Shown here: positions 2,669 through 29,099 of the stretch, one piece after another
Layout of the letters: every line of letters begins with the position of its first letter
Position numbering within the stretch: position 1 is the stretch's first letter
Source: Gemmatimonadota bacterium
GTDB taxonomy: Bacteria > Gemmatimonadota > Gemmatimonadetes > Gemmatimonadales > GWC2-71-9
Length of the DNA stretch: 32,981 nucleotides
NCBI GenBank assembly: GCA_036679645.1
Contig: JAZDCY010000045.1
Coordinates: 1-32,981 of the forward strand
Reading direction: 5' to 3'
Position numbers and translations under genes: made by a program
The notes under the pieces: model-generated
The model's database searches: none
What the model saw: only the letters and a program-made list of their open reading frames with translations
Told to the model about the DNA's origin: nothing

Positions 2669-2780
2669 GGGTCCCTCGCGCGTGTGGGTGGATGAGTCTT
2701 GGGGGGCAAATCTTGGTGCGTACCCGTCTCCTGAACGTCACCCTGCCAGGTGACGGCTGGGGGACGGTGCTCGCGCGCCT

Positions 2781-4427: not shown

Positions 4428-4524
4428 GGTCTTACCAACCATCCCCCAATGAAGTACCGTCTCCTGTCCCACCCGCCCCGGCGTGACGGTCCGGATGGGC
4501 TCGTACCGTCCACAGCCAGGTCTC

Positions 4525-5757: not shown

Positions 5758-5784
5758 CCCCGCCTTCTCCGGAGGCGCCGCCCC

Positions 5785-12186: not shown

Positions 12187-12210
12187 GGGCAGTCCGCGGC
12201 AGGTCGTCGC

Positions 12211-13623
12211 ATGCTCGGGAGACCGCTCATGTTACTCGCGGCTGGATTCTTCCTCCTTTGTCGTGCGCTTTCCGCGCAGGCCCCCGGCGAAGTGGGGCCG
12301 ACGAGTGCCGATACCGTCGTCTTGGCCCTCGACGACGTGCTGCGCACGGCACTGGCGCAGAACCTCCGGCTCCGCGCCGCGTCGGCGGAGACCCGGGGCG
12401 CGGCAACCTTCCGAACCACGGCGTGGTCGCGATTCGACCCAGCAGTGAACGTCGGAGGCGAGTACAACGGGAGTGGCGTCGGCGTCCAGCTCGTCGGTGA
12501 GCTGCCGACGGGCGCCACGTACCTCCTCGGCTCGGTGGCGCCGTCGACCCTCCCCGGCGATCCCGTCTTCGCCGACGCGATCGTCGCGAGAATCGATCAG
12601 CCCGTGTTGCGCGGGCTGGGGCTCTACAGCGCGCGTAACGCCATTCGGGCGGCGGACGAGGGGGTGGAAGCGTCACGTGCCCGCCTGAGCCGCACGCGTG
12701 ACGAGGTGGCGGCCGTCGTCCGGCTGGCCTACGCGATCCTGGTGGAGCGGCACCGACAGGAGGCCACCGCCGAGCGCTCGGTGCGGCGCGCGCTGGAGCT
12801 GCTCGATGCCTACACGTCGCTCCGGGCCATCGAGAGGATCACCGAGGTGGACCTCATCACCGCGAAGCTGGGCGTAGCGTCGCGCCAGGCCACGCTGCTC
12901 CAGGTGCGTCGCGAGCGCCGGGCCGCCGAGGATGCGCTCCTGTTCGCGGTGTACGGCGCCGGAGCGCGCGCCGTGCTCGCCCGTGCAGGCGACGCCGTGT
13001 GGATCCCGCGGGACACGGTGGTCGACGCCCCGTACGTTCCCTCGATGGAGGACGCCACCGCACGCGCCCTCGCGGCGCGTCCCGATCTGGAGGCCGCGCG
13101 CCACCACGTGGCCCAGGCGCGGTACCGTTCGCAGCAGGCACGCAACGCGGCGCTTCCCACGCTCAACCTATCGGCGTCTTTCAGCAGCACCCGCAGCGAC
13201 ACCCTGCTGGGACCCGGCGTGGCGTTCGACGCGCGCGATCAGGGGTGGCGTTTCGGCGTGGTGCTGTCGCGCCCCTTGTGGAACTCGGGCGCCACTGCCC
13301 AGCGCGACCGGGCCACGGCCGCCGCCGATCAGACGGAGGCGCAGCTCATCGAGGCGGAGAACGTCGTGCGCCGGGAAGTGCGGGCCGCAGTCCGCGACAT
13401 CGAACTGGCGCGCGAGCAGGTGACCATCGCCGCGGACGCCTCGCGCCTGGCCCGCCAACAGTACGAGATGGAGCGCGAACGCCTGACGCTCGGGCTCACC
13501 GACATCTTCCGCGTACTCCAGTACGAGGAACAGGTGGGGACCGTGGAGCGGGCGGAGGCGGAGGCATGGCGGGCGTACGCGACGGCCGTTGTGCAGTACC
13601 GGTTGGCGATGGGGGAGGGCTAG
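12211..13623 (+). CDS. TolC-family outer membrane efflux protein
   Basis: Signal peptide; LDDVLRTALAQN, ALAARPDL, ALPTLNLS, ERERLTLG; last gene of the type I secretion operon. Confidence 0.85.
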   Translation: MLGRPLMLLAAGFFLLCRALSAQAPGEVGPTSADTVVLALDDVLRTALAQNLRLRAASAETRGAATFRTTAWSRFDPAVNVGGEYNGSGVGVQLVGELPTGATYLLGSVAPSTLPGDPVFADAIVARIDQPVLRGLGLYSARNAIRAADEGVEASRARLSRTRDEVAAVVRLAYAILVERHRQEATAERSVRRALELLDAYTSLRAIERITEVDLITAKLGVASRQATLLQVRRERRAAEDALLFAVYGAGARAVLARAGDAVWIPRDTVVDAPYVPSMEDATARALAARPDLEAARHHVAQARYRSQQARNAALPTLNLSASFSSTRSDTLLGPGVAFDARDQGWRFGVVLSRPLWNSGATAQRDRATAAADQTEAQLIEAENVVRREVRAAVRDIELAREQVTIAADASRLARQQYEMERERLTLGLTDIFRVLQYEEQVGTVERAEAEAWRAYATAVVQYRLAMGEG

Positions 13624-14223: not shown

Positions 14224-16128
14224 TCAGCTGCGGTGCTCTTCCGTCGCCAGGGCGCGAGCGATGTAGTCCGGCGGCACGGTCGTACGCGGCACGGCATGCG
14301 CGAACCACTCGCGCACATCGAGGCCCAGCCCATCCCCTTCCTGAAACCGGTACGTAGCATCTCGCAAGCCCTTCCCAAGAGCGTCGTGATCGGTGCCCGT
14401 CGGGTCGTGGAACGGGAGGCTGAACTCCGTGAAGACGTGGTCGCCCTGCAGCACACCGGTGAGCTGGATACCGTACTCCTCGGGGTTTTGCCCGACCGGG
14501 CTGTGTCGCGTGGTGACGAAGCGGTGCCAGTTTCCCGACTGAAGACATCCGGCTGCGAAGAGCTGTCGCACGTACTCGAGGCTGTCGATCGTCTCCTGAA
14601 GGGTTTCGGTCGGGAAGCCGTACATGAGGTACGCGTGGACGACGATTCCGTGCTCGCTGAAGTGCCGGGCGACCCGCGCGACCTGGGTGACGGAAACGCC
14701 TTTCTTCATCTTCTCCAGGAGCCGGTCGGATGCTACCTCGAGACCGCCGCTGACCAGGACGCATCCGGCGCGTGCCATGAGTTCGGTCAGCTCGCGCGTG
14801 AACGACTTCTCGAAGCGGATGTTCCCCCACCACGAAATCGAGAGATCCCGTTCGAGCAGGCGCGCGGACAGCATCCGTAGCAGGGCGGGGGGCGCCGCCT
14901 CGTCCACCCAATGAAATCCCGAGAGACCCGTCTCCGCGCGTAGCTGTTCGATGTGCTCGATGAGGCGGTCCGCCGTCTGCGGCTCGTAGCGCCGGATGTA
15001 ATCGAGCGTGGTGTCGCAGAACGAGCACTTGCGCCAGTAACACCCGTGCGCAAGCGTGAGCTTGTTCCATCGTTTCGACCAGATCCGGTGTGCCGGCGTC
15101 GCCGATGTGAGAACCGAGATGTATCGCTCGATGGGCAGACCGTCGTACACCGGCGTGTTCGCTTCGGCAAACGGGACATCCTGTTCGTTCCTGGAGGAAT
15201 GGTAGCTCACCTTACCGTCTACGCGCCGGAAGGTGCGGAAGAGACCCTCCGGGCCACGCTCGTTTCGCAGGTATTCGAGCAGGCACGAGAGGGGGCGCTC
15301 ACCGTCGTCCAGCGTGACGAAATCGAAATAGTCGAACAAGCGGGGGTCGGAGATCGCGCGAAGGTAGGTGTTGACGTACCCACCGCCGAGGGCGACGTGC
15401 ACGTCGGGTCGTTCACGCTTGATCACCTCGGCAATGCGGAAGGCACCGGCCACGTTACCGGGGAAGGGTGCGGACAGGCCAACCACGTCGGGCTCGTGCG
15501 TCGCGAGACCGTCGAGCGTGATCTCCCGGATGAGCTGGTTGGTTGGGGTCTCTCTCTGTTCCTCCAGAAAGCGGTGGACGGCATCGAACGCGGTCGCCGT
15601 GCCGACGTGGTCCGCGAACGAGTAGAGGGCGAACCCGGGATCGACCAGTGCGATGACGTCCGTGATGTCGAGCAGGTAGTAGCTCGCCGCCAGTTGCGCA
15701 CGCTCACCGTCTTCGAGCGACGCGACGTTGTGCGGCATCCCGGGGATGGGACAATGGTCGTCAAACAGCTGTCGCAGGCGTGCGCCTTCGGGCAGGTATC
15801 CGCGTTCGTTGAGGTGAACGCCCACCGCGGGGTCTTTGGTCTGGAGGTAGGACATGACCGGCTCGACGGTATCCAGATACCGGTCGAGATGGGTGAGGAA
15901 GTGCGTTCGATTCTGGAGGTCTCGGGGCCCGACCGGTTGGCATTGCCCGACCGCGTGGCCGACCCGTTGGAGTCCGCTCCGCGACAGCAGCCGGTGCGCC
16001 AACTCGAGCGACCAGTCGGCCTGATGCGCGTCGACGCCGATCGAGCGGAGATGGCCCGTGAGCGCGGCCGTTGACGGATACGGAGTGTTCAGGTCCGCCA
16101 TCGGAGGGATCAACAGCAGCACGCGCAT
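14224..16128 (-). CDS. Cobalamin-binding domain radical SAM protein
   Basis: PDVVGLSAPF...VALGGGYVN B12-binding region, TLDDGERPL, CX4CX2C motif GCYWRKCSFC, GGLEVASDRLL, HAYLMYGFPTET. Confidence 0.9.
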   Translation of the reverse strand: MRVLLLIPPMADLNTPYPSTAALTGHLRSIGVDAHQADWSLELAHRLLSRSGLQRVGHAVGQCQPVGPRDLQNRTHFLTHLDRYLDTVEPVMSYLQTKDPAVGVHLNERGYLPEGARLRQLFDDHCPIPGMPHNVASLEDGERAQLAASYYLLDITDVIALVDPGFALYSFADHVGTATAFDAVHRFLEEQRETPTNQLIREITLDGLATHEPDVVGLSAPFPGNVAGAFRIAEVIKRERPDVHVALGGGYVNTYLRAISDPRLFDYFDFVTLDDGERPLSCLLEYLRNERGPEGLFRTFRRVDGKVSYHSSRNEQDVPFAEANTPVYDGLPIERYISVLTSATPAHRIWSKRWNKLTLAHGCYWRKCSFCDTTLDYIRRYEPQTADRLIEHIEQLRAETGLSGFHWVDEAAPPALLRMLSARLLERDLSISWWGNIRFEKSFTRELTELMARAGCVLVSGGLEVASDRLLEKMKKGVSVTQVARVARHFSEHGIVVHAYLMYGFPTETLQETIDSLEYVRQLFAAGCLQSGNWHRFVTTRHSPVGQNPEEYGIQLTGVLQGDHVFTEFSLPFHDPTGTDHDALGKGLRDATYRFQEGDGLGLDVREWFAHAVPRTTVPPDYIARALATEEHRS

Positions 16129-16273: not shown

Positions 16274-16756
16274 CTACGCTGGCTTATGCCGTACGGTGGC
16301 GAGCTTCCGCGCCGCCCAGAGCAGGAATCCCAGATAGACCACGCCCATCACGCCGGATCGGAACAAGCCAAGGAACACTTCGCTCCGATCGGCGGGCCGG
16401 AGGGCGGCCGACATCCCCGGCAACCTGACCGCAACGAGGCCGAGGAGGAGTATTGAAACGGCGGCGAACGCGAGGCTCAGCCACTGTACCCCTTTGAGCG
16501 CACCCTCACGCTCCTGGGTGATCGCCCAACTGGCCAGCGCCACGATCCCGATGATGATGACGGCCATGCCGTCGAAGAACCGCACCATCAGGTTCATTTC
16601 CCAGTTCAAGTCTCCGAAGGACACGGGGAACCAGTACTGGGCGTGCCGGGCGATCCCGACGAACACGAGCACCAGCCCCAGTCCGCCGACGAGCGCCCAC
16701 GCCCCTCGTCTGCTGTAGGTTGGGCTGCGTTCCTGAGGCTTGATTGGCGGAGAAAT
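16274..16756 (-). CDS. Hypothetical ~4-TM membrane protein (start uncertain: ATT 16756 or GTG 16672)
   Basis: Four hydrophobic segments. The frame is open upstream of 16672 through GAWALVGGLGLV to an ATT preceded by GGGAGG. Confidence 0.6.
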   Translation of the reverse strand: MSPPIKPQERSPTYSRRGAWALVGGLGLVLVFVGIARHAQYWFPVSFGDLNWEMNLMVRFFDGMAVIIIGIVALASWAITQEREGALKGVQWLSLAFAAVSILLLGLVAVRLPGMSAALRPADRSEVFLGLFRSGVMGVVYLGFLLWAARKLATVRHKPA

Positions 16757-17211
16757 GTGTCCTCCCGGTTACGCAGGGGCCATGAAGATCGGTACCAGGC
16801 GACCGGCGCGCAACGGGTATTTGCCTCGTCAAGCCGTCAGCGGCCCGCATCAGCCCGTTGCCGGGTCGCGACAGGTCCGGTCTCCATCGCGGGTGGCGAG
16901 GAAGATCGACTCGTCACTAACCCGTTGTCATTTTTGGAGTTCTAGTCGTCGCGATTGGTCACCGTCTCGGGCGGGGAGGCGAGATTCCCTCGTGCGATTC
17001 TTGCAATAATAAATACCGCTCTTTTCCGAATATCCGAGCTTTTGTGTCGGGTTTTGTCGATGCTGGGTTTCGGGACCCGCCGTCAGAATCGATGACCCTC
17101 TCATTACGGGATCACACGTGGTATGGATGCCATGGGCCGGTTGAACAGCACCGCGAGGAATCAGCCTGACCGCAACCGCTCGCACGCCTACCCTACAGCC
17201 CGGGGGGGCGC

Positions 17212-18456
17212 ATGGGAGTAGAACTTCGTCCGCTCGGCGTCCGCTGCAACATCCACTGCCAGTACTGCTACCAGAATCCGCAGCGGGACGCGGGTAACCT
17301 CGCCGATTCCTACGATATCGACCGCATGCAGGCCGCAATCGAAGCGGACGGGTCGCACTTCACGCTCTTTGGTGGTGAGGCGTTGCTCGTTCCCGAGGCG
17401 GATCTCGAGCGCTTGTGGGCGTGGGGACTCGAGCGGTATGGCTACAACTCGGTCCAAACGAACGGGACGCTGATTTCCGACCGGCACATCGAGCTGTTCA
17501 AGAAGTACAAGGTGCACGTCGGGATCTCCGTCGATGGTCCAGGGGACCTCAACGACGGGCGCTGGGCCGGTACGTTGGAGCGGACGCGCGAGCTGTCGGC
17601 GCGAACCCACGAAGCCATCGAACGGCTCTGCAGCGAGGGCATCCCCCCTGCCCTCATCGTGACGCTCCACCGAAACAACGGGACGGCAGACAAGCTCCCG
17701 CAGATGCACGACTGGTTCCGGTACCTCGAGACGCTGGGCATCTCGTCGGCGAGGATTCACATCCTCGAGGTCGACAACGAGTGGGTGCGGAGCAAGTACG
17801 CGCTCACGATCGAGGAAAACCTCACGGCGTTCATGAGCTTTGCCGATCTCGAGCACGAACTCGAGACGCTCAAGCTCGATCTCTTCCACGACATGCGGAA
17901 TCTGCTGTTGGGCAACGATGGCCAGACGACCTGTGTGTGGAACGCGTGCGATCCGTACACCACCCGAGCCGTTCAGGGTGTCGAGGGGGACGGGCAGCGC
18001 AGCAATTGCGGCCGCACCAACAAGGACGGGATCGATTTTACCAAGGCGAATACCGAAGGGTTCGAGCGATACATCGCGTTGTATCACACCCCGCAGGAAG
18101 ACGGTGGGTGTAATGGGTGTCGCTTCTTCCTGATGTGTAAGGGACAGTGCCCGGGGACGGCCATCGACGGCGACTGGCGCAACCGCACCGAGCACTGTGA
18201 AGTCTGGAAGGGCCTCTACCGGCACGTCGAAGGGACGTTGCTCGATCAGGGGCAGCGGCCGCTGTCCGTCATGCCGGAGCGGAAGCTCGTGGAGCAGTTC
18301 TTCCTCGACACGTGGGCCGGAGGGTCGAACACTTCTATCGAGCAGGCGGTCAAGCGTCTCAACGAACGCGGCACGGCCGCCGCAGGCGCAGTGCACCAGG
18401 GCGTGCGGCACGGGGACTCGAACCACGGCGACCACACCGATCATGCCGCCAACTGA
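17212..18456 (+). CDS. Radical SAM/SPASM peptide maturase with C-terminal HxD tail
   Basis: CNIHCQYC, FGGEALL, QTNGTL, GISVDGP. SPASM-like Cys set TTCVWNAC...NCG...CNGCRFFLMCKGQCP...HC. Tail HGDSNHGDHTDH. Confidence 0.92.
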   Translation: MGVELRPLGVRCNIHCQYCYQNPQRDAGNLADSYDIDRMQAAIEADGSHFTLFGGEALLVPEADLERLWAWGLERYGYNSVQTNGTLISDRHIELFKKYKVHVGISVDGPGDLNDGRWAGTLERTRELSARTHEAIERLCSEGIPPALIVTLHRNNGTADKLPQMHDWFRYLETLGISSARIHILEVDNEWVRSKYALTIEENLTAFMSFADLEHELETLKLDLFHDMRNLLLGNDGQTTCVWNACDPYTTRAVQGVEGDGQRSNCGRTNKDGIDFTKANTEGFERYIALYHTPQEDGGCNGCRFFLMCKGQCPGTAIDGDWRNRTEHCEVWKGLYRHVEGTLLDQGQRPLSVMPERKLVEQFFLDTWAGGSNTSIEQAVKRLNERGTAAAGAVHQGVRHGDSNHGDHTDHAAN

Positions 18457-19948
18457 CCGCCTGGATTTCGTCCTGCACGATTTCACCCGGCTGAGCTGGG
18501 TAAGCGACGCGGCGCGAGACCTCTGGGGTCCTCGCCTGCACCGTGTGACCGAGGCCTGGTTCGAGATCGAATGGCGCGCGGTCCTCGCGGGCCTGCGCCG
18601 GTGTGGCGTCACGGTCACCACGCCGGAAGGACTCATCGAGCGCGCCGCCAAATGGGTCGGGCACGGGCTGAACGCGCTGCCCGTGGAGCTCCACGGCGCG
18701 CGCGACAGCTATGCCAGTACGGGCGAGAAAGCCCGCCTCGGCGAGCCGTTCGTGTTCCGCATCGCGGTCGGCATCCCCGAAGACGTGGCGGAATTCAAGC
18801 AGGTTTGGGACGCGGCGGACAATCGCGGCATCGGGGGGTTCCTCGGATATCCCGAGTGCTGCCTGGACTTTTTCGAGGAGCATTGGGTCGACGGCCAGAT
18901 GATCGATACGACGTGGCCGATGGCGGTCGCGAGCAGCACGTCGCCAAACGGCACGCGGGACCTCGAGATCACCGGACCGCCCGAAGCCAACATTCTGTGG
19001 CGCTGGATGGGCGCGCGCGCGGTGCCGCACCTCCCCTGCCGCAGCGACTGCGAGGCGACGGTCGAGTTCGGCCGCGCGCTGATCGACGTCGGGCGCGGGG
19101 CCGGGTTCGACGAAGAGATGGACTGGTTACTCGAGATCCTCTCGTGGCCGGTCGAGTGGTCGGCGCTCCATGGCATCGCGGAAATCAAGACGCCCATTCT
19201 CAAGGTCGTCTCCCGCGCGGACGCGACGCGGTCCAAGTACACGGTTCGGCGACCCGGAACGGCGTACCCCGAGGCCGGAGCGCAGGGGCTCAAGTTCCCG
19301 TATCAGATGCCGCGCAAGACGATCACGGAATCGCGCGGCTACAAGCGGGGTCTCGACAACCCGATCGAGGCCGCACGCGCGCGTCCCGGTTGGTACGCGA
19401 GCGACAACGGGTTCGCCTCGATCGCAGCGATGGACCAGGCGCACACGCCGATCATCGGAGTGGCCGATGCGACGCTCGATGGCGAGGCCGCCAGTGTCCT
19501 TGACCTCGGGTGCGGAAACGGCGCCCTGCTCGAAGGCCTTCGCGACGCCAATCCCAAGGTCGTCCCGTACGGCGTGGAGATCGATGCGGAGCGCCTGGAG
19601 CACGCCCGGACACTGTTCCCCGATCACGTCGAGAACTTCACGGTCGGGGACATGTTCAGCGAAGAGATCTGGCAAGCCGGCCGTCGCTACGCGCTGGTCC
19701 TGCTCATGCCCGGTCGGTTGTTGGAAGCCGGGCCCGAACGCGCCGCCTGGCTGCGCGAGCAGATCAAAGCGCATTGCGACCATGTACTCGTGTATGCCTA
19801 CGGAGACTGGCTCACCAAGTACCGCGACCTGCAGGGGTTGGCCCGACGCGCGGGCCTGTCGCTGCTCAGTTCGGGCTCGGGCGCAACGGTCAGTCTCGCA
19901 AAATACCGGAAAGCTGGCGAGCAGCTTTCCGAGGCTGTGACATCATAA
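18443..19948 (+). CDS. Cys-motif domain (DUF483-like) fused to a class I SAM-dependent methyltransferase
   Basis: FLGYPECC and PHLPCRSDC motifs; C-terminal VLDLGCGNG, YGVEID, VGDMF. ATG at 18443 overlaps the rSAM 3' end. Confidence 0.7.
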   Translation: MPPTDRLDFVLHDFTRLSWVSDAARDLWGPRLHRVTEAWFEIEWRAVLAGLRRCGVTVTTPEGLIERAAKWVGHGLNALPVELHGARDSYASTGEKARLGEPFVFRIAVGIPEDVAEFKQVWDAADNRGIGGFLGYPECCLDFFEEHWVDGQMIDTTWPMAVASSTSPNGTRDLEITGPPEANILWRWMGARAVPHLPCRSDCEATVEFGRALIDVGRGAGFDEEMDWLLEILSWPVEWSALHGIAEIKTPILKVVSRADATRSKYTVRRPGTAYPEAGAQGLKFPYQMPRKTITESRGYKRGLDNPIEAARARPGWYASDNGFASIAAMDQAHTPIIGVADATLDGEAASVLDLGCGNGALLEGLRDANPKVVPYGVEIDAERLEHARTLFPDHVENFTVGDMFSEEIWQAGRRYALVLLMPGRLLEAGPERAAWLREQIKAHCDHVLVYAYGDWLTKYRDLQGLARRAGLSLLSSGSGATVSLAKYRKAGEQLSEAVTS

Positions 19949-19988
19949 CACTATTTCCTACTCGTTGTCGAATGACTGGGAGGTCATG

Positions 19989-20699
19989 ATGAGTTCTGAC
20001 GAACGTGGCAAGAAGCCGGATCCGGAGGACCATGTCAAGAAAGACCCGGAAGGATCGAGTACAACCCCGGACGGTGACAAGCCAGGGGGCAAGAGCGATA
20101 TCAGCCGTCGAGGACTGATCCGGGCCGGCTGGAGCGTCCCCATCATCATGGGTGTGTCCCTCCCCAAGAACGCGTTCGCGCAGTACGCGCACAGCGACAC
20201 CGCCCCGCACGCCGACACCCACAACGACCACGGTGATCACAGCGACCACGGTGATGCGCCAGGTCAGATACACGAGGATGCCGGTCACAACGATCACGGT
20301 GACACGTTCATTCCCCACGCGGACATTCCGCACCAGGACTTCATCGAAATCCCGCACGCAGACATCGGAACGATCCCGCACGTCGATACCGGACTGCACG
20401 TCGATGTCCTGCCGCACATCGATATCCCGTCGTTGCACGGCGATCTGGGGCACGTGGATGTGACGCCTCACGCCGACCTCGCGCTCCACATCGACGTCAT
20501 TCCGCACACCGATGTCCCGCATGCGGACGCGTCCTTCCACGGCGATGTTGGTGTCCCGGGTATCCACGGCGACATCATCCCGCACGTCGACGTGGGTCAC
20601 GTGGACATCGTCCCCCACTTCGACGTCGGGCACTTCGATGTGGTCCCGCACTTTGATGTGGTCCCGCACGGCGACATCGGCGGTGGGTTCGGGTTCTAG
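19989..20699 (+). CDS. His-Xaa-Asp repeat protein, putative RiPP precursor with Tat-like leader
   Basis: GGGAGG SD before ATG ATG (19986/19989). Leader SRRGLIRAGWSVPIIMGVSLPKNAFA. 172-aa core from 20181 with 29 HxD motifs. Sits among peptide-modifying enzyme genes. Confidence 0.85.
   Translation: MSSDERGKKPDPEDHVKKDPEGSSTTPDGDKPGGKSDISRRGLIRAGWSVPIIMGVSLPKNAFAQYAHSDTAPHADTHNDHGDHSDHGDAPGQIHEDAGHNDHGDTFIPHADIPHQDFIEIPHADIGTIPHVDTGLHVDVLPHIDIPSLHGDLGHVDVTPHADLALHIDVIPHTDVPHADASFHGDVGVPGIHGDIIPHVDVGHVDIVPHFDVGHFDVVPHFDVVPHGDIGGGFGF
20220..20303 (+). repeat. 18-bp coding repeats (H-N/S-D-H-G-D)
   Basis: CACAACGACCACGGTGAT (20220), CACAGCGACCACGGTGAT (20238), CACAACGATCACGGTGAC (20286). Confidence 0.85.
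20631..20669 (+). repeat. 18-bp tandem coding repeat (HFDVVP x2)
   Basis: CACTTCGATGTGGTCCCG CACTTTGATGTGGTCCCG CAC, with one synonymous mismatch. Confidence 0.85.
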
Positions 20700-20715
20700 T
20701 ACCGACGTTTCGATT

Positions 20716-20759
20716 GGTCAACGCCCGCGGCGGAGCTTGCTTCGCCCGGGCGATTGGCT
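20716..20759 (+). promoter_or_regulatory. Stem-loop after the precursor gene (mRNA stabiliser or partial terminator)
   Basis: GGTCAA CGCCCG C GGCGGAGC TT GCTTCGCC CGGGCG A TTGGCT; no U-tract. Confidence 0.5.
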
Positions 20760-20785
20760 CTATATGGATGTAGGAGGTGGCTACG

Positions 20786-21925
20786 GTGAAAGTGGAAAGT
20801 GTCACGGACATCGACTGGAAGCGCACGCCTGAGCCCCAGGCGGATCAGTACGACACGGACGTAGCGGAACGTTTGGCCAAGGGGCGCGGCCCCGACGTGT
20901 CTGGACTCGAGAACGCCCCACGCATCTTCGATGGCGCCGTACCGATCGAGGAGACCACTGCGGAGTCGGTGCAGTTCCCCGAGTCGTGCGTGCCCGCACC
21001 GGCCGATCACCCGAACATTCAGCAGGCCGTCGAGTTGATCCGGCTCTGGCCGACCGTATTCACGCAGTGCCAGCGTCTGATCCGCAAAGCGAACTTCTTC
21101 GTCGACACGGCGGTGCCGGAGAAGGGGTTCATCGGCTCGCTGTCGCGGGCCGGAGCCGACGGGTTCGGGACCGTCGCCGTGACCGTGAACGATCCCGTGG
21201 CGCTGGCCGAGTCCATCGTGCACGAGATGGGGCACAACAAGTTGCGCGCGCTCGGGGTCGATTTTACCAGTGCCAAACGGATCGTCACGAATACCGAGGG
21301 CGATCAGTACAAGAGCCCCGTACGATACGACTGCCTGAGGCCTATGACGGCCATTCTGCATGCGATGTGGTCGTACACGTACTTGACGGCGCTCGATGTC
21401 GAGATCCTGCGCGCCTCGTCCGACCATGCGGTGAAACATCGTGTCGCGCAGCAATCACTGGCCCTGAACCTGCCCAGGTTGGACTTCGGGCTCGACGTGC
21501 TGCAGTCGCATGTGCAGACGGACGAGGCAGGGAAGCAGTTCTTCTTCGGGTTCTTCCAGTGGCTCGATCGGGTTCGTGCGGCCGGCTATGACATTCTCGA
21601 GCGGGTCGGCATCAAGCCCCTTCCGTTCGTCCACCCCGATGACGCGCAGGGCAAGACCAATGGACCCCGGCCGGCGCGGGTCAACGGCCTCCATCAGTAT
21701 CGGCTTGGCGAAGAGACGCTGATCTACGTCCCCGACGCCGAGAAGGCCCACGCGCTCAACCCGTCGGCCGTCGCCATTTTCGATCTGTGCGACGGCTCGC
21801 GTACGGTTCAGGACATCTGCCGCGAGTTGGGCCCGCTCGTGGGCAAAACGGCAGGCGAACTCACGCCGGACGTGGAGCAGGGCGTGACACAGCTCCGCGA
21901 GCTCGGCCTCCTCCAGCCGGACTGA
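20786..21925 (+). CDS. aKG-HExxH peptide beta-hydroxylase-like protein fused to a C-terminal PqqD/RRE domain
   Basis: AESIVHEMGHNKL...YKSPVRYDCLRPMTAILHA; C-terminal AHALNPSAVAIFDLCDGSRTVQDI...LRELGLL. AGGAGG lies 8 nt before GTG 20786 (alternative start 20777). Confidence 0.88.
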   Translation: MKVESVTDIDWKRTPEPQADQYDTDVAERLAKGRGPDVSGLENAPRIFDGAVPIEETTAESVQFPESCVPAPADHPNIQQAVELIRLWPTVFTQCQRLIRKANFFVDTAVPEKGFIGSLSRAGADGFGTVAVTVNDPVALAESIVHEMGHNKLRALGVDFTSAKRIVTNTEGDQYKSPVRYDCLRPMTAILHAMWSYTYLTALDVEILRASSDHAVKHRVAQQSLALNLPRLDFGLDVLQSHVQTDEAGKQFFFGFFQWLDRVRAAGYDILERVGIKPLPFVHPDDAQGKTNGPRPARVNGLHQYRLGEETLIYVPDAEKAHALNPSAVAIFDLCDGSRTVQDICRELGPLVGKTAGELTPDVEQGVTQLRELGLLQPD

Positions 21926-21931
21926 AGAGTC

Positions 21932-22783
21932 GTGCGGTCTGCGTCGCCTGCCACGACGATGGCCGTCGCGTTTCAAGGCTGCGCTGTAGCCGTCCGGTCG
22001 ACGGCAGTCGAGGTGATTGACGAGTTCCGGCGCGTCTGCGGTACCATGGTCGTCGTCCCGGACGCGGTCACTCCGGTTGGGCACCTGCAGGTCGATCGTA
22101 CCGGCGAGGTCTATGTCGTCAGCGGGGACACCGACGTGGCGCTCGGTGACGGGTCCCTGGCAGACGTCATGCGCTGCCTGCGCTATTCGGTCATCCAGCT
22201 CTTCATTCAAGCCTTTCCCGGCCTGTACTGGTTCCACGCGGGCGCTGTCGCCTGGGGGGGAAACGCGGTGCTGATTCCGGGCCACCGTGGGCGCGGCAAG
22301 AGCACGCTGGTGACCGGCCTTGGCGATCACGGGTGGGACTACCTGTCGGACGACGTGGTCCCGCTCGACCCGCAAACACACACGCTGCTGCCCCTCCCAT
22401 TCGCTCCTGCGAAGCGCGAGTACCCCGGGCGTCGGATGCGATCGGTGTGGCTCCGGACAACTCCCAAGACGGACGTGACCGTGCCTGGCGAGCGCGTGCG
22501 CAGCGGCCCGACGCCCGTTGCGGCATTCGTGATCCCCCGATACCGGCAGGACGCTCACACCAAGGTCGCCGCGTTCTCGCCAGCCCAGGCCGCCGCGTTG
22601 CTGCTGGAGAACTGCTGGAACTTCGGCGCGCCCCGGGCCAATGCCGTGCGTTACGTCTGCGCACTCGCGGGCCGGCTCCCGGCGGTCCGTGCCGTCTTCT
22701 CGGACGGGGCCGATGCGGCGCGCGTCCTCGCTGGCACGCGCGAAGAGTGGATGATGGACCGCGCCGCGGCGCGCGAGGCCTGA
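21932..22783 (+). CDS. HPr kinase-like (HprK-related) kinase
   Basis: FHAGAV, P-loop GHRGRGKSTL, YLSDDVVPL. Confidence 0.85.
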   Translation: MRSASPATTMAVAFQGCAVAVRSTAVEVIDEFRRVCGTMVVVPDAVTPVGHLQVDRTGEVYVVSGDTDVALGDGSLADVMRCLRYSVIQLFIQAFPGLYWFHAGAVAWGGNAVLIPGHRGRGKSTLVTGLGDHGWDYLSDDVVPLDPQTHTLLPLPFAPAKREYPGRRMRSVWLRTTPKTDVTVPGERVRSGPTPVAAFVIPRYRQDAHTKVAAFSPAQAAALLLENCWNFGAPRANAVRYVCALAGRLPAVRAVFSDGADAARVLAGTREEWMMDRAAAREA

Positions 22784-22788
22784 GCGTC

Positions 22789-23994
22789 GTGGATATACAG
22801 CAGTTCAAGGTCCTGGGCAGGGAAGTCGACGAGGCATGGCGTGCGCGGCAATACGACGAGTTTCAGTTTTCCGAGGTTGCGCTCGAGGTGCTCGGCAACG
22901 CCTCACTATCGACATCCGTCGATCTGCAGTCGATTCTCGAGCGGTGTTTGGATCCCGCGGCGAACGAGTTTCGGATAAGGGGATCGTTTGGCGATCTCCC
23001 GTTGATCGTCTACGAAACACCGCAGTTCTACGTTCAGGTGCTGATGTGGACCACCGCCACCACCAACATTCATCAGCACGGCTTCTCCGGCGCGTTCCGC
23101 GTGTTTGCCGGATCGAGCATCCACAGCCAGTACGAGTTCCACACCCGCGAGCGCATCAACTCGCGTATCTCGGTTGGGGATGCCGAGCTCAAGACCATCG
23201 AGCTGCTCCGTCAGGGACAGACCCACGAGATCATCTCGGGCAGCGGCCTGACGCATGCGCTGTTCCATCTCGATCTGCCGAGCGTCTCTGTAGTGGTTCG
23301 GACGCACGCGGAACCGTGGTCGTCACCGCAGATGACCCTTTACCCGCCGCACCTCGCGGTCGATACCGTGACGTTGGGTTCCGATCCGGTGTGCAACGCC
23401 ATCGCCAAATGCCTGCGAGTCATGCGACACGCCCAGGACCCCCGGATCGCCGACTCCATCATCTCCCTGGTACCACGCCTCGACTTCGCACGCATCTACC
23501 AGGTCTTTCAGCGCCATCGACAGCAGCTGGGTAGTGAGGAAGGGCGCTTCCTAGATGCCGTCCGGGAGCGACATGGTCAGCTGACCGACCACATGCTCGA
23601 ATCGATGCAGTACGAGCGCCGACTCGAGAAGATCCGCGAGCTACGCGGGACGGTGCGAGATCTCGAGTTGCGGTTCTTTCTGGGTGTGCTGCTCAATGCG
23701 CCTAACCAGAAGCGCATCTACGAACTTGTGGCGGCCCAGTATCCCGAGGTGGATCCGGAGGACAAGGTGGTGGAATGGCTTACCGGTCTCCTGCGCACCG
23801 GAGAGTTCCCGGCCAAGGCGGGTGTGTCTCTCCTGAGGCCCTTGTTGCGCGGCTCGAGCCTCGAAGAGACCGTCCGGGCCGTTGGGGACGCAATCGACGA
23901 TACGGAGGCCCAACCCCCAGCGGCTCTCGTGGCTACGATGTGTGAACAAATCAAGGGCGTTCCGGCCTTCGACCGACTGTGGATTCGGAACTGA
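22789..23994 (+). CDS. Cupin (cysteine dioxygenase-like HxH...H) domain protein
   Basis: VQVLMWTTATTNIHQHGFSGAFRVFAGSSIH...LTHALFHLD; helical C-terminal extension. Confidence 0.65.
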   Translation: MDIQQFKVLGREVDEAWRARQYDEFQFSEVALEVLGNASLSTSVDLQSILERCLDPAANEFRIRGSFGDLPLIVYETPQFYVQVLMWTTATTNIHQHGFSGAFRVFAGSSIHSQYEFHTRERINSRISVGDAELKTIELLRQGQTHEIISGSGLTHALFHLDLPSVSVVVRTHAEPWSSPQMTLYPPHLAVDTVTLGSDPVCNAIAKCLRVMRHAQDPRIADSIISLVPRLDFARIYQVFQRHRQQLGSEEGRFLDAVRERHGQLTDHMLESMQYERRLEKIRELRGTVRDLELRFFLGVLLNAPNQKRIYELVAAQYPEVDPEDKVVEWLTGLLRTGEFPAKAGVSLLRPLLRGSSLEETVRAVGDAIDDTEAQPPAALVATMCEQIKGVPAFDRLWIRN

Positions 23995-25868
23995 GGCCCG
24001 CGGGACAGGCGCACGTCCCGGCTGACACGCCTGTGGCGCTCGTGAACATGCCGTTTGCCACGATACGGCACCCGTCGATTCAGATCGGGTTGCTCCAGGC
24101 CCACGGGTGCCGCGCCGACATTCCGCTACGCAGCCTGTACGCCAACCTCGACTTCGCGGCACGCATCGGTTTTCAGCTCCACGAGGCGCTGGCGATTCAT
24201 CGCGGGGCCCTCATCGGAGAGTGGTTGTTCACGAAGGCTGCGTTTCCGGAGCATGAAGCCGCCGACGAGTTCCCTCGACGGTACGGGAACATCGTCGATG
24301 AGGTCGCCGATGTCGCCGGCGTGCCGCGCGCGGATGTGGTGGCCATCAGGGACGTCCACGCGCCCGCGTTCGTCGCCGAGATGGCCGACCGGCTCGTCGA
24401 AGCGGGCACACGGGTCGTGGGCTTCACGTCCACCTTCGAGCAGAACGTGGCCTCCCTCGCGCTGGCACGTGCGGTCAAGGAGCGCGATCCCGCCATCGCG
24501 ACGGTGTTCGGCGGGGCCAACTACGACGCCGACATGGGTCGCGCGTATCTCGACGCGTACCCCTGGATCGACATCGCGGTGGCCGGTGAGGCGGACGACA
24601 TCTTCGTCCCGCTGATCCAGGCCCTCCTGGACGGAGCCGCCATACCGGAACTCATCGGCGTCAACACACGGACCAGTAACGGCAACGGCACCCGGGGGAC
24701 GTACCGCGGGTCGATGGACGCGCTCCCCGTGCCAAACTACGACGACTACTTCGAGGCCATTCGGCGCAATGGTTTCCATCAAGAGGAGATCAAGTGGAGC
24801 CTCGCCCTACCGTTTGAATCGTCGCGTGGCTGTTGGTGGGGTGCCAAGCATCACTGCACCTTCTGCGGGTTGAACGGCATGGCGTGGCGGGCCAAGTCGG
24901 TGGAAACGGTGGTGTCGGACATCAGCACCTTGGCGACGAAGTATCATGTCAGTTCCTTCCTCGCCGTCGACAACATCATTGGTGTTGACATGCTGCGCGG
25001 CCTGGTGTCGCAGATGACCGAGGAGGAGTACGACTACGATTTCTTCTACGAGATCAAGGCGAACCTCACGAGGGCGCAGATCCGCGGCATGCGCGACGCC
25101 GGTATTCTCCGCGTCCAGCCGGGTATCGAGAGCCTGAGTTCGCCGGTCCTCTCCCTGATGCGGAAGGGCATCACGGGAATCCAGAACATCAACACGCTAC
25201 GCTGGTTGCGATTCTACGGCGTGCAGGCAATCTGGAATATCCTCTTCGGCTTCCCGGGCGAAGCACAGGAAGATTACGACCGCCAGCTCGAGGTGATCGA
25301 GCTGACCCCTCATCTCCGGCCCCCGAAAGGGGCCGGCCGCATCTGGCTGGAGCGGTTTGGGCCGTACTTCAAGGAGGCGGAGGCCTTTGGGTTCGACAAC
25401 CTGCGGCCCGACGAGTGCTACTCGTATATCTATCCCCCGCCGCTCTCGCTGCACGATGCCGCGTATTTCTTTCAGAGCGATCCCACGCAGACGCTCACCG
25501 ACGACGTGTACGCTCCCACGCAACGAGCCGTCGAGCGGTGGCAGGAGATGTGGCGGCAGCCCAAGCGTCCCTATCTCCTCGTCACCAAGACGCACCCTGG
25601 GATCAGGGTCATCGACGGGAGGAGCAACCAGCAAGACCCCACCACGCGGTTCTACAAGGAGCCGCTGTCGCACGTCTACCTGTATTGCAGCGATCGGCCG
25701 CGTGGCATGCGTTCGATTCTCGAGTTCGCTTCCGAGAAGCGGCTCGAGTCATCCGATATCGAGGGCGACGTGCAGGACGTGCTGCAGACGTGGGTGCGTG
25801 ATGGCGTGATGATAGAGGAGGATGGGCGATATCTGAGCCTGGCACTCCCGCGGATGCCGTGGCGTTAG
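23979..25868 (+). CDS. B12-dependent RiPP maturation radical SAM C-methyltransferase (TIGR03975-like)
   Basis: ALVNMPF, PSIQIGLL, VVGFTSTFEQN, FGGANY, CX7CX2C motif SRGCWWGAKHHCTFCGLN, QPGIESLS, WNILFGFPGE. Confidence 0.92.
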   Translation: MDSELRPAGQAHVPADTPVALVNMPFATIRHPSIQIGLLQAHGCRADIPLRSLYANLDFAARIGFQLHEALAIHRGALIGEWLFTKAAFPEHEAADEFPRRYGNIVDEVADVAGVPRADVVAIRDVHAPAFVAEMADRLVEAGTRVVGFTSTFEQNVASLALARAVKERDPAIATVFGGANYDADMGRAYLDAYPWIDIAVAGEADDIFVPLIQALLDGAAIPELIGVNTRTSNGNGTRGTYRGSMDALPVPNYDDYFEAIRRNGFHQEEIKWSLALPFESSRGCWWGAKHHCTFCGLNGMAWRAKSVETVVSDISTLATKYHVSSFLAVDNIIGVDMLRGLVSQMTEEEYDYDFFYEIKANLTRAQIRGMRDAGILRVQPGIESLSSPVLSLMRKGITGIQNINTLRWLRFYGVQAIWNILFGFPGEAQEDYDRQLEVIELTPHLRPPKGAGRIWLERFGPYFKEAEAFGFDNLRPDECYSYIYPPPLSLHDAAYFFQSDPTQTLTDDVYAPTQRAVERWQEMWRQPKRPYLLVTKTHPGIRVIDGRSNQQDPTTRFYKEPLSHVYLYCSDRPRGMRSILEFASEKRLESSDIEGDVQDVLQTWVRDGVMIEEDGRYLSLALPRMPWR

Positions 25869-25887
25869 GCGGCCCGACGGCCTGGGT

Positions 25888-26904
25888 TCAGAGCGCGAGG
25901 TAGCCTACGGTCGGGTGCGCCCGCAGCATGTATCGGAACGAGTCCGGGTACTCGGAGAGACCGAGGAGATGCTCGATGCGCGCGATGTGGGCCATGGTGT
26001 AGGTTGCGAATGCCGAGAGGCAGCGCAACTCCTCGAGTCCGAAACGGACACCGCGCGCGCGCTGGTATTCTTCGACAAAAGCCGCTGCTTCTTCCGGCGT
26101 GACCGTGCCGCGTGCCGCCCCCCGCGCAAAGCTCACCGCTGCCCCCCCGACCAGCCAGAGCTCGTCGATGATGCGGAGGCTGTCCCAATCGTATATGACC
26201 GAGACGGCGTTACCGCGGTATCGGAAGTGCTGGTCTGTCCAGTCGTTGTGTGCGAGGACCGCGGGGTACTTCGCGTGTTCATGCACGACCTCCTTGGCGG
26301 GTCGCGCGATGCGATCGATCCACTCGGCCTCCGATGCCCGGTTGCTCGCGTCCAGCACGTGATGGGGCGGCCAGAGGGTGTCCGGTGGTAGCCACGGCGA
26401 TGGAAGCCCCGGTGTGTCGCGTAGGGGCTCGGCGCGGTCGATCAGTTCGGCGAGGGTCGAGGCCATGACGGCACGGATGGCGGGGTCGTGGGGATCGCCT
26501 CGCTCCCCGTCGGCCACGAACGCATCGATCGTCATCCGGCCAACGGGGAGCTCGACCGGCGGGTGCACCACCGCAGGGCATGGAAACCCACGGGTCGCGA
26601 GCACGGCCTGCACGCTCGAGGTGGCGGTGAGGGACGCGAGCGGTGCGGTGGGATTGTGCACCTTGACGAAGATACGGCGGCCGTCCTCGAGGGTCAGGCT
26701 GATGGCCGCTCCGTCCGCGCACACGGCCGAGGGGCATCCGCTGACGGCCGCGCCGAGGCGATGGCGACAGAACCCATCGACGACTCGCGCGACCTGCTCG
26801 GCGCCCGCGCCGCGAAATAAGCCCCGTGGAATGTCCGCGCTCGGGGCGGTATCTATTGCGCGCGTGAGTTGCGCGGTAAGCTCGTCCATCCCGATAGGCG
26901 GCAT
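25888..26904 (-). CDS. APH/choline kinase-like phosphotransferase
   Basis: RIFVKVH, GFPCPAV, Brenner-type LAHNDW, VIYDWDS. Start 26904 or 26889. Confidence 0.8.
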   Translation of the reverse strand: MPPIGMDELTAQLTRAIDTAPSADIPRGLFRGAGAEQVARVVDGFCRHRLGAAVSGCPSAVCADGAAISLTLEDGRRIFVKVHNPTAPLASLTATSSVQAVLATRGFPCPAVVHPPVELPVGRMTIDAFVADGERGDPHDPAIRAVMASTLAELIDRAEPLRDTPGLPSPWLPPDTLWPPHHVLDASNRASEAEWIDRIARPAKEVVHEHAKYPAVLAHNDWTDQHFRYRGNAVSVIYDWDSLRIIDELWLVGGAAVSFARGAARGTVTPEEAAAFVEEYQRARGVRFGLEELRCLSAFATYTMAHIARIEHLLGLSEYPDSFRYMLRAHPTVGYLAL

Positions 26905-27023
26905 CTCGTTGGCGGTTAAGGTACGAACTCCAAACCTGTCGGACCAGCCCGGGCATGCCCGATACGCGAAGAGCAAACCGCGTCCCGCGCGCTGGCGCAC
27001 CATGGTCGTCACACGGTGAACCC

Positions 27024-28229
27024 GTGAGCGCGGGCGGCGATCGCCGGGAAACCGCCTTGCTGCTCGAGGTGTGCCGCCCGGACCGGCAGGCTGAGCGCAT
27101 TCGACGTGCGTTTGGCGAGGTGCCGGCGGGACACGGCGTCGTGACTCGAGCCATCGCGCTCGACGTGGGGCCGCTCTTCTTTGCCGCGCTTCGTGAGGTG
27201 GCGTGCCTGGATGAGTTCCCCGAGCAGACCCGCGCGACGCTCTCGAGGGCGTACTATCGCGAAGCGGCGGTCAACGCGCGGGCGCACGCGCGGTTGGAAG
27301 AGGTACTAGCCTGGCTGAGCCGCGAGGGAATCGACACGGTGCTGCTCAAGGGCGCGGCGCTTGCGGAACCGGTCTACGGCGACCTCGCGGTGCGCCACAT
27401 GCGCGACTTGGATCTTCTCGTCCCGGAATCCGGGCTGCGATCGACCCAGCGAATCCTCGAGGGCCACGGGTACGTGCGCAGTGAGGCGTGGCACTCGGCC
27501 GAGTGGTACGAGACCGCGCACCACCACCTGGTCCCGATGCACTCCCCGGACGGCGCCGTGACGATCGAAGTGCACCGCCACATAGTGCGTTCCACCGATC
27601 CCATCTCGATCGATGTCCATCGGTTATGGGAACGCACGCGCGCGGTCCGGATCGGTACGACCGATACGCGGTCGCTTGCACCGGTCGACCTGCTCCTGCA
27701 TGCGGCGGTGCACCGGACGCTGGCCGGCGAGTTCGTCGGCCAGATGCAGACGCTGTGTGATATCGCGACCATCGTGCATCGTTTTGGCAGCGACATCGAC
27801 TGGGACGATTTGCTCGAGTGGGCTCCCGGCCGCAAGGCGGCCAAGTACCTCGCCTACCCGTTGCGCTGGGCCGCGGCGTTGTTGCATGCGCCGGTGCCCG
27901 CCGCGGTCATGACAGATCTTGGCGCACGCATGGCCCCGACGGGTCGCGCCCATGCGCTGCTCGACCGTTGGGGAAGGGCGGTGAGCACGTGGCCGGGCGC
28001 GGTGACGTCGCCGCGCCGCGCGTGGCTGTGGAACGACCTGCTCGTAGCACTGCTCGGAGCGAACCACGCGTCCGGGGTCGGTGCCATCGTGGGCGTTCTG
28101 TCGCGCGGTCTGATCACGTCGGCTCGAAAGACGGTGCCGCGATTAGGCGTGTTCCTTCCGATTTACGCGGTAGCGATTCACCCGTTCGTGCTGGTGTGGC
28201 GCTGGCTGGCGCGGCGTCGCCGTCGTTGA
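27024..28229 (+). CDS. Nucleotidyltransferase family protein (NTP_transf_5-like)
   Basis: VLLKGAALAEPVYGDLAVRHMRDLDLLV, IEVHRH, LLLHAAVH, LCDIA. Start is approximate. Confidence 0.88.
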   Translation: MSAGGDRRETALLLEVCRPDRQAERIRRAFGEVPAGHGVVTRAIALDVGPLFFAALREVACLDEFPEQTRATLSRAYYREAAVNARAHARLEEVLAWLSREGIDTVLLKGAALAEPVYGDLAVRHMRDLDLLVPESGLRSTQRILEGHGYVRSEAWHSAEWYETAHHHLVPMHSPDGAVTIEVHRHIVRSTDPISIDVHRLWERTRAVRIGTTDTRSLAPVDLLLHAAVHRTLAGEFVGQMQTLCDIATIVHRFGSDIDWDDLLEWAPGRKAAKYLAYPLRWAAALLHAPVPAAVMTDLGARMAPTGRAHALLDRWGRAVSTWPGAVTSPRRAWLWNDLLVALLGANHASGVGAIVGVLSRGLITSARKTVPRLGVFLPIYAVAIHPFVLVWRWLARRRRR

Positions 28230-28345
28230 TGATCTTCGGCCTTGGACGTTCAGCCTGGAGGCCCGGTGGCTTCTGGCGCTTGTGTGGTGTGAGGAGGCAG
28301 GCGTAGGGACTCGATACAGTCCCCGATGGGCGCGGGAACCCCCGT

Positions 28346-28380
28346 CCCTCCCGGCCCTCGCGGAGCGAGGGCACGGAGGG
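28346..28380 (-). terminator. GC-rich hairpin in the tRNA 3' trailer
   Basis: GCCCTCGC-GGA-GCGAGGGC stem (28354-28372), extendable by CCCTCC/GGAGGG; no clear U-tract. Confidence 0.4.
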
Positions 28381-28387
28381 CCGGGGA
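28367..28387. repeat. att-like direct repeat, copy 2 (tRNA-Ser 3' end)
   Basis: Identical 21-mer to 2083-2103. Confidence 0.85.
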
Positions 28388-28456
28388 TTCGAACCCCGAT
28401 GCGCTTGCACGCGGCGGTTTTCAAGACCGCTGCCTTACCGTTAGGTCTAGCCCTCC
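28374..28456 (-). tRNA. tRNA-Ser(UGA)
   Basis: GGAGGGC/GCCCTCC acceptor stem with G discriminator. Anticodon arm GCGGT-CTTGAAA-ACCGC, long variable arm GCGTGCAAGCGC, T arm GGGGTTCGAATCCCC. CCA is not encoded. Confidence 0.96.
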
Positions 28457-28701
28457 CAGGACGGTAAGGTAATCGGGATCAGGAAGTTGCCCAAACCGGC
28501 CTCGCCTGAGGTGCTCGGGCTCAGCCTCCGCAACACGCACGTCGGTACGGAAGGTTGCACGTTCTTGTTGGCAGGCCTAAACGCTAGGTCGTAGAAACGC
28601 TCCGGCCATTCTCAGAATGATGCTCCTCTTGAGTGCGCCCAGCACTATGATCGCGGGAAACGGTAGAACCGTCCCCCACCCACCAGCGATCGCCTATATT
28701 C

Positions 28702-28890
28702 ATGAGGATTCGTGATCTGATTCGACTGCTCGAGCGCGACGGGTGGTACCTTGCCCGCACTCGCGGGAGCCATCGACAGTTCAAGTACCCGTCCAAGCGG
28801 GGTGTGGTGACTGTCGCAGGCAAAGCGCGTGATGATCTGGCACCGGGGACCTTGAACAGTATTCTGAAGCAGGCGGAGATTGAGCTATGA
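28702..28890 (+). CDS. hicA: HicA toxin (type II TA mRNA interferase)
   Basis: LERDGWYLARTRGSHRQFK...VTVAG...DLAPGTLNSILKQA. Confidence 0.93.
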   Translation: MRIRDLIRLLERDGWYLARTRGSHRQFKYPSKRGVVTVAGKARDDLAPGTLNSILKQAEIEL

Positions 28891-29099
28891 GAATTCTAGT
28901 AATCGTGGAGCGGACGCCAACCGGTTTTTCCGCGTTTTCCCCGGACGTGCCGGGATGTGCCGCGACCGGTAGCACGCAGGAAGAAGTTGAGGCCGTCATG
29001 CGGGACGCGATTGCACTCCATCTCAACGGCCTCAAGGCCCAAGGGTGCAACGTGCCCGAACCGCACGCGTACGCGACCTATGTCGAGGTCGCCGCGTGA
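28887..29099 (+). CDS. hicB: HicB antitoxin (short form)
   Basis: FSAFSPDVPGCAATGSTQEEV...AIALHL; ATGA overlap with hicA. Confidence 0.92.
   Translation: MRILVIVERTPTGFSAFSPDVPGCAATGSTQEEVEAVMRDAIALHLNGLKAQGCNVPEPHAYATYVEVAA

Follow-up and report, generated by a model that had tools for sequence, protein, structure and literature searches.

Three-residue cyclophanes are aromatic-to-C-beta links formed on aromatic-x-x motifs, and the available text of a report on HaaB, YhhB and HtkB shows that His can serve as the aromatic residue and establishes His-C2-to-C-beta rings for all three enzymes (PMC11499958). These triceptide synthases (HaaB/HAA, YhhB/HNR, HtkB/HTK, and ChlB with ChlH) are the closest described counterparts of a gene cluster at positions 17212–28229 of contig JAZDCY010000045.1 from a Gemmatimonadota bacterium (32,981 nucleotides, one whole contig of its genome, referred to below as the window), in which a protein with a long series of His-x-Asp (HxD) triplets is encoded beside a radical S-adenosylmethionine (rSAM) enzyme. 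The two share an rSAM/SPASM enzyme, a repeated aromatic-X-X3 motif with His, Tyr or Phe in the first position, and an HExxH partner. They differ in that the HxD system has a fixed Asp at X3, a near-obligate DUF483 partner and three extra SPASM cysteines, and lipoproteins, giant proteins and phage proteins are among its apparent substrates.

The core of the cluster also has a published relative, the 'rSAM module' carried by the Thermus phages Cumys and phiMa. That module consists of genes for an rSAM enzyme, a DUF483 protein and a third, unknown protein, and DNA modification was suggested for it (PMC11437467). It belongs to the same family as the trio of rSAM enzyme, DUF483-like partner and HxD protein in the window, and the original prediction that the gene set was undescribed thus holds in part: the core trio was already in print as a phage module, whereas the repeats are not mentioned in the available text of that description (PMC11437467). 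Unlike the window, the Cumys region yielded no leader and no RiPP recognition element (RRE; RiPP, a peptide that is ribosomally synthesized and then post-translationally modified), kinase, HExxH or B12 genes. Literature searches for HxD with rSAM, RiPP, triceptide, kinase-module and DUF483 found no description of an HxD system, most subscription journals lying outside their coverage.

Other parts of the cluster resemble further RiPP pathways. The phosphorylated lasso peptides paeninodin and pseudomycoidin and the linear polyphosphorylated peptides (LPP) have a similar leader motif, a PqqD/RRE domain, an HprK-like kinase and a nucleotidyltransferase; the cluster differs from these lasso and LPP systems in that no lasso cyclase, B2 or S26/signal-peptidase-like protease was found among the window open reading frames (ORFs) scanned, and in having a twin-arginine-like leader, a long HxD core and a primary enzyme that is an rSAM pair. 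Another group, the His-Xaa-Ser systems (HxsA/B/C/D), likewise have His-based three-residue repeats beside rSAM genes. They are set apart by the absence of any HxS from the core described here; Hxs models do not appear among the NCBIfam matches listed for the rSAM enzyme and the precursor.

The maturase, its partner and the HxD protein

All nine genes of the run described in the original prediction are present, in the orientation proposed and at or near the positions assigned to them. The first (17212–18456, + strand; PF04055) encodes the 414-residue rSAM/SPASM enzyme, the core maturase, which has no RRE. It contains a CxxxCxxC motif and eight SPASM cysteines, the eight being kept in 79–80 of 80 relatives, and residues H183, D247 and R268 are invariant; Y20, F53, Q82, S106, D247 and P248 were assigned by motif as putative catalytic-site residues. 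The enzyme passes no NCBIfam cut-off, its best score being to AmcB (71 bits against a cut-off of 425), with lower scores to DynA (69/450), anSME (TIGR03942; 68/349, there being no sulfatase among the window ORFs scanned), YhhB (54/445), GrrM (53/310), DarW (47/650), XyeB (44/450), DarE (43/650) and FxsB (33/370); the HxsB and HxsC models are absent from the best 25 of 51 NCBIfam families and from the 12 at E≤1e-10. A structural model (predicted local distance difference test score, pLDDT, 89.1) gave Foldseek matches to anSME (E 1.8e-14, template modelling (TM) score 0.66) and ChlB (E 2.4e-14, TM 0.64), and the nearest families and folds include the cyclophane synthases AmcB, DynA, YhhB, GrrM and ChlB. 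The C-terminal tail (18410–18453), which overlaps the partner start, itself carries three HxD, and at least two are present in the enzyme's own tail in 38 of 116 relatives; this tail may be a site of self-modification or a decoy substrate.

The second gene (18443–19948, +) overlaps the first by 14 nt. It had been described as a Cys-motif protein with a methyltransferase, and this can now be specified as a DUF483-like N-terminal domain (18443–19396) fused to a class I SAM methyltransferase domain (19397–19948; Pfam Methyltransf). The window protein scores 15.9 bits to DUF483 (PF04467) against a gathering threshold of 25, and 49 of 70 family members match at E≤0.1, the best at 4e-8. Conserved in the family are C139-C140 and H196-x-P-C199-xxx-C203, a Cys/His set that likely forms a metal site. 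The model of the partner has a pLDDT of 94.9; the fold has no BFVD match at E≤0.001 and no PDB sequence match, and the N-terminal half alone matched anything. The methyltransferase domain has plantazolicin N-methyltransferases as its best PDB matches (E 3e-9).

The HxD protein (19989–20699, +) is 236 residues long, with a 64-residue leader (19989–20180) and a 172-residue core (20181–20699). Every one of the core's 29 His and 29 Asp belongs to one of its 29 HxD triplets, compared with a mean of 4.85 and a maximum of 13 in HxD register among 100,000 shuffles of the core, and there are zero occurrences each of HD, HxxD, HxE, HxN and HxS. The triplets are spaced 3 to 9 residues apart and X is one of ten different residues, so that the array is not a DNA tandem repeat. 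The second half of the core is rich in Val, Ile and Pro, the whole contains 12 Ser, Thr or Tyr, and no Phe-x-Asp or Tyr-x-Asp is present. In a six-frame scan of the genome two of 72,691 ORFs have at least five HxD within a stretch of 60 residues: the HxD protein with 12 and one other with 5. The leader contains, in order, the twin-arginine-like SRRGLIRAG, with its arginines late at residues 40–41, then WSVPII, and then AFA, after which cleavage is predicted at a position placed by eye. We infer export of the HxD protein by the twin-arginine (Tat) pathway from the twin arginine, hydrophobic stretch and AxA of this leader, all judged by eye, and from the presence of a TatC gene in the genome.

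Of the 7,439 candidates from a search with the rSAM enzyme, 2,703 were related to it at E≤1e-20, the best 120 being at least 65% identical. We compared 126 rSAM loci (46 from genomes plus the top 80 of 100 confirmed loci from metagenomes), of which 47 are long, the rSAM gene having flanks of more than 3 kb on the upstream side and 5 kb on the downstream side; many of the 126 are short, and all locus counts include near-duplicates and kin. The partner N-terminal domain lies beside the rSAM gene in all 47 long loci and in 113 of the 126 overall, and the methyltransferase domain, a common accessory, in 30 and 65, respectively. An HxD array (four or more HxD within 40 residues, no further than 5 kb away) is present at 46 of 53 rSAM loci with 3-kb flanks, and the 62 control loci, each 7 kb or longer, have none. 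The co-occurrence of rSAM homologues with HxD arrays and with the 18443 gene, as foreseen in the original prediction, thus extends over about ten phylum-level groups, one of them archaeal, plus phages. Among 400 other genomes of the host phylum there is no rSAM match at E≤1e-60, and in spite of its spread across phyla the system is therefore patchy in occurrence. The conserved unit is the trio of rSAM/SPASM enzyme, DUF483-like partner and HxD array. As judged from sequence, the system is real and widespread; it most likely works like a triceptide synthase, although it does not qualify as a member of any named family.

The arrays are found in several contexts. They follow lipobox twin-arginine leaders at 13 loci, mostly from a single actinobacterial clade, and GWxxP leaders at 14 loci; others occupy the ends of 900–1,900-residue proteins or belong to short peptides or phage proteins, and one protein can have up to 84–104 triplets. 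Because the same maturase accompanies lipoproteins, giant proteins, NHLP-type peptides and phage tail-region proteins, we infer that the enzyme pair needs no fixed leader to read the triplet. The smallest tractable substrate found is in a proteusin-like cluster of one relative (L018, 3121–13665), which combines an NHLP-clan precursor with a two-HxD core, a YydG-like rSAM enzyme, two TIGR03975 enzymes, the HxD maturase, a partner-methyltransferase and an HExxH protein. Short natural substrates suited to mass spectrometry and nuclear magnetic resonance occur here and in loci L009 and L052, and Cumys offers a cultured host-phage system. At another locus (L092, 11662–17438) four tandem HxD proteins of 25 to 104 triplets are encoded on the strand opposite the maturase.

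The phage relatives bear on the suggestion that the rSAM/DUF483 module modifies DNA, in favour of which the available text reports homologues near deazapurine genes (PMC11437467). Cumys_13, the third gene of the phage module and part of the tail-gene region, encodes a long HxD array, the neighbouring Cumys_12 rSAM enzyme and Cumys_11 partner being 53% and 36% identical to their window counterparts, and the neighbours in the window are peptide-tailoring enzymes and an RRE; we regard DNA modification as extremely unlikely. In Thermus phage phiLo the rSAM gene (51%; L210, 6001–8513) is followed by a putative methyltransferase gene and adjoins IS605 transposase genes, and a more distant relative (34%; L213, 3980–5554) lies in the baseplate-gene region of a haloarchaeal plasmid.

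Proposed chemistry of the triplet

In a sample of 92 distinct arrays (107 before removal of near-copies) Asp is at the +2 position of 1,853 of 1,958 His, a figure that is partly circular since the arrays were picked on HxD. Away from His, Asp is at +2 of 79 of 140 Tyr and 27 of 81 Phe, compared with 65 of 1,914 non-aromatic residues. The cores at loci L019 and L009 are mostly F/Y-x-D, and the L019 precursor (11926–12489), beside the same maturase, has zero HxD. The use of Tyr or Phe in place of His before x-Asp fits crosslinking of the triceptide type between an aromatic residue and Asp, and by this analogy it seems rather probable that the rSAM enzyme and its partner crosslink the ring of each His to the Asp two positions downstream of it, with a predicted change of -2 Da per triplet. 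The 5′-deoxyadenosyl radical would abstract a hydrogen from the Asp C-beta, and the resulting Asp radical would add to the His ring, at C2 by analogy with HaaB and HtkB, with the auxiliary clusters accepting the electron. The maturase would recognise the triplet and no leader, and the partner would probably hold or feed the substrate.

Several observations count against such a crosslink. The rSAM enzyme is far under all cyclophane-synthase cut-offs, and its first three SPASM cysteines, part of the eight it keeps, are missing from the aligned HaaB and GrrM homologues. The residue that selects X3 is H204 in HaaB and D214 in HtkB, and by the charge logic of the available account a His suits Asp at X3 and a Glu would not (PMC11499958); HaaB His204 aligns with the invariant His183 in a MAFFT alignment but with a gap beside Glu186 in an hhalign profile comparison. 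Trp-x-Asp is not enriched (0 of 22), and a requirement for a DUF483 partner was not found for any triceptide synthase in the literature covered, parts of which were available as partial text. Seven of the 53 loci miss the array threshold: two have short F/Y/H-x-D cores (L009 and L019), one the two-HxD core noted above (L018), two sparse HxD tails on giant proteins (L036 and L039) and one the enzyme's own HxD tail only (L056), and at the last (L118) no candidate substrate was found. The fold, finally, ties with that of anSME, an enzyme of other chemistry. That the rSAM enzyme and partner act on HxD by a different route, whether by forming a dynobactin-like N-to-C His-Asp link, by converting the Asp through oxidative decarboxylation or epimerisation, or through methylation that the partner carries out with SAM, appears unlikely.

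His and Asp are metal ligands, and the arrays could instead be unmodified metal-binding ladders, with the rSAM enzyme and its partner loading or building a metal centre or having another substrate. The conserved Cys/His set of the partner, the exported appearance of many substrates and the HxD in the maturase's own tail in 38 of 116 relatives would be in keeping with this. The register is strict, however, with zero free His or Asp and zero HxE, HD or HxxD, replacement by Phe or Tyr would lose the ligand, and arrays without the enzyme are absent from the control loci (0/62), and a metal ladder is accordingly considered very unlikely. If the crosslink between His and Asp is correct, cyclophane chemistry would no longer be confined to short peptides but would reach long proteins and parts of virions, DUF483 would gain a function, and there would be a leader-free enzyme pair able to rigidify any His-x-Asp tag.

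A probable leader-linked tailoring module

Three further genes of the cluster supply a PqqD domain, an HprK-like kinase and a nucleotidyltransferase, which recur with a particular type of leader. The first (20777–21925, +) encodes an alpha-ketoglutarate-dependent HExxH beta-hydroxylase (TIGR04267, 69.8 bits against a cut-off of 40; H149, E150 and H153 invariant) with a C-terminal PqqD/RRE fusion (PF05402), and the second (21932–22783, +) an HprK-like P-loop kinase with a visible Walker A motif, which scores 72 bits to TIGR04352, below the cut-off of 200 (E 4e-20). The third, outside the operon (27024–28229, +), encodes an NTP_transf_5 nucleotidyltransferase (PF14907, E 1e-45); its predicted identity was correct, and its start is probably GTG at 27024 rather than 26955. 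The WSVPII of the leader fits the lasso-type motif [Y/W]xxPx[L/V/I/A/F/Y], which is bound by discrete lasso-peptide RREs, according to the available text (PMC13381572), and all 14 related GWxxP leaders also fit at its last position.

The 11 of 126 loci that have PqqD are also those that have the HprK-like kinase. In the 47 long loci a GWxxP leader and both of these genes are found together in nine, the leader only in one (L012), the module only in none, and neither in 37. The nucleotidyltransferase is present in seven of the 47 and 13 of the 126 and recurs with the PqqD/HprK module, so that the inclusion of PqqD, kinase and nucleotidyltransferase among the system genes in the original prediction is upheld through this leader type. 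Kinases and nucleotidyltransferases act on lasso and LPP peptides, as described in the text available (PMC8498205, PMC13381572). The HExxH protein, also a common accessory, is found in 14 of the 47 long loci, mostly without an RRE, the PqqD fusion being present here and in L009. Its family has ChlH as the best PDB match (E 8.7e-7), an enzyme by which both His and Asp of a cyclophane peptide are hydroxylated (PMC12636437, available text); if the Asp C-beta is crosslinked, His would be the likelier target of HExxH hydroxylation.

The link between leader and module has its own weaknesses. The Fisher p value of 7e-9 overstates the association, as the leaders had already been seen when the pattern was set and related loci do not count as independent, and rows with leader and module fall in five places on a quick rSAM tree in which most inner branches are weak. 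Locus L056, an 8.6-kb contig outside the 47, has the kinase module with no precursor in view; Ser/Thr content is not raised in kinase loci (0.161 versus 0.171); and no change could be detected when lppN was deleted in a heterologous test, according to the available text (PMC13381572). A single-protein search of genome contigs with the HprK-like kinase returned one weak unrelated locus. The same genome has two further PqqD, HprK-like and nucleotidyltransferase cassettes, on contigs C38 and C98, without an HxD maturase.

A defensible unit at this locus comprises the rSAM enzyme, the DUF483/methyltransferase protein, the HxD protein, the HExxH-RRE protein and the kinase, and the nucleotidyltransferase probably belongs to it. 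The WxxPxI of the leader would bind the PqqD domain, which would offer the chain to the HprK-like kinase for phosphorylation of Ser/Thr, perhaps with extension by the nucleotidyltransferase, and also to the HExxH enzyme for beta-hydroxylation of His or Asp. Modification would be followed by the predicted Tat export, giving a rigid, heavily modified, His/Asp-rich exported polypeptide that is plausibly metal-binding or adhesive. A broader and more tentative proposal, possible though short of probable, is that the rSAM enzyme and the DUF483 metal protein, with its largely unmatched fold, form a leader-independent two-component stapling machine that would processively turn dozens of HxD into cyclophanes on nearly every protein to which it is joined, among them exported lipoproteins, giant proteins, phage tail-region proteins, short RiPPs and its own tail. 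The triplet would act as a portable tag and pathways would be joined through leader swaps, here by a Tat/lasso hybrid that brings in kinase, hydroxylase and methylase steps. On that proposal the product would be among the most densely modified ribosomal polypeptides predicted. The locus illustrates how RiPP pathways are assembled, a lasso/LPP-type leader-RRE-kinase module being joined to an unrelated maturase.

Cupin, B12 enzyme and flanking genes

The remaining genes of the run are less readily assigned to the HxD protein. An orphan cupin-like protein (22789–23994, +) with four invariant His (H95, H97, H156 and H160) has no meaningful Pfam or PDB sequence match and a weak CDO-like lead only. 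Its family of 95 proteins is an orphan of wide occurrence, often found in Verrucomicrobiota, and has the motifs IHQHGFSGAF and HALFHLD. The overlapping gene (23979–25868, +) encodes a B12-dependent rSAM C-methyltransferase (TIGR03975, 596 bits against a cut-off of 282) with Cx7Cx2C, a PoyC-type motif (PMC11285071, available text). It thus resembles the proteusin C-methyltransferases (PoyB/PoyC; TIGR03975) in both its score above cut-off and its motif, and differs in that the window has two candidate precursors. A kinase-like ORF on the opposite strand (25888–27012, −; start perhaps ATG 26904) is convergent and sits between the operon and the nucleotidyltransferase gene. The label of APH kinase given to it earlier derives from APH/choline-kinase motifs judged by eye; there is no Pfam match at E≤1, CcrZ is matched at E=0.028 only, and there is no PDB match.

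The original prediction had all nine genes acting on the HxD protein; a dedicated HxD system of rSAM enzyme, partner and array is supported, and action by the full set of nine is not. Of the 126 loci, none has the cupin, none the APH-like gene and one (L018) the B12 enzyme, the cupin and APH-like genes having been searched with one query each. The cupin was rejected as a core gene, as the best 80 of 552 cupin genome loci lack the rSAM enzyme and partner, and no conserved RiPP neighbour was found in these 80. The cupin and APH-like genes have probably come along as passengers or been recruited locally.

For the B12 enzyme, action on the HxD precursor is plausible because its gene overlaps the cupin gene and the second half of the core is Val/Ile-rich, and C-methylation of Val and Ile in this half would be a tentative step of the proposed pathway; the enzyme is possibly a local addition. 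A rival substrate is the upstream NHLP-like precursor (2327–2668, −), a 113-residue protein with an AVAGG cut site (E 1.6e-10, below cut-off). A single dedicated cascade of all nine genes, including the cupin, the B12 enzyme and the APH-like kinase, on the HxD precursor is therefore quite unlikely: in its favour are the cupin and B12 genes that abut or overlap the operon, the pairing of TIGR03975 enzymes with the HxD maturase at L018 as well, and the Val/Ile-rich half of the core, and against it are the locus counts, the cupin loci without conserved RiPP neighbours, the opposite strand of the APH-like gene, and the substrate that the NHLP precursor could provide.

The NHLP exporter (5785–13623) was rejected as a transporter of the HxD protein, as it has its own GG-type precursor (2327–2668) and its HlyD is unmatched in the 46 genome loci. 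The NHLP cluster (2327–13623) also includes a GNAT protein whose C-terminal domain is unassigned (2781–4625), a BTAD regulator, a complete exporter with a C39 peptidase, and TolC. A second B12-dependent rSAM enzyme (14224–16128, −) with Cx4Cx2C, under all cut-offs, lies between the two clusters.

One public contig, possibly the window's own source, matches positions 16500–28500 without difference. A scan for promoters and terminators gave signals at chance level only. A genomic island bounded by a tRNA-Ser repeat was rejected, as a second copy was not found in the window. In the region directly after the cluster (28374–29099) there is a tRNA-Ser gene on the minus strand, after which GC content falls to 57–63%, and two small ORFs that by eye resemble a HicA/HicB pair.

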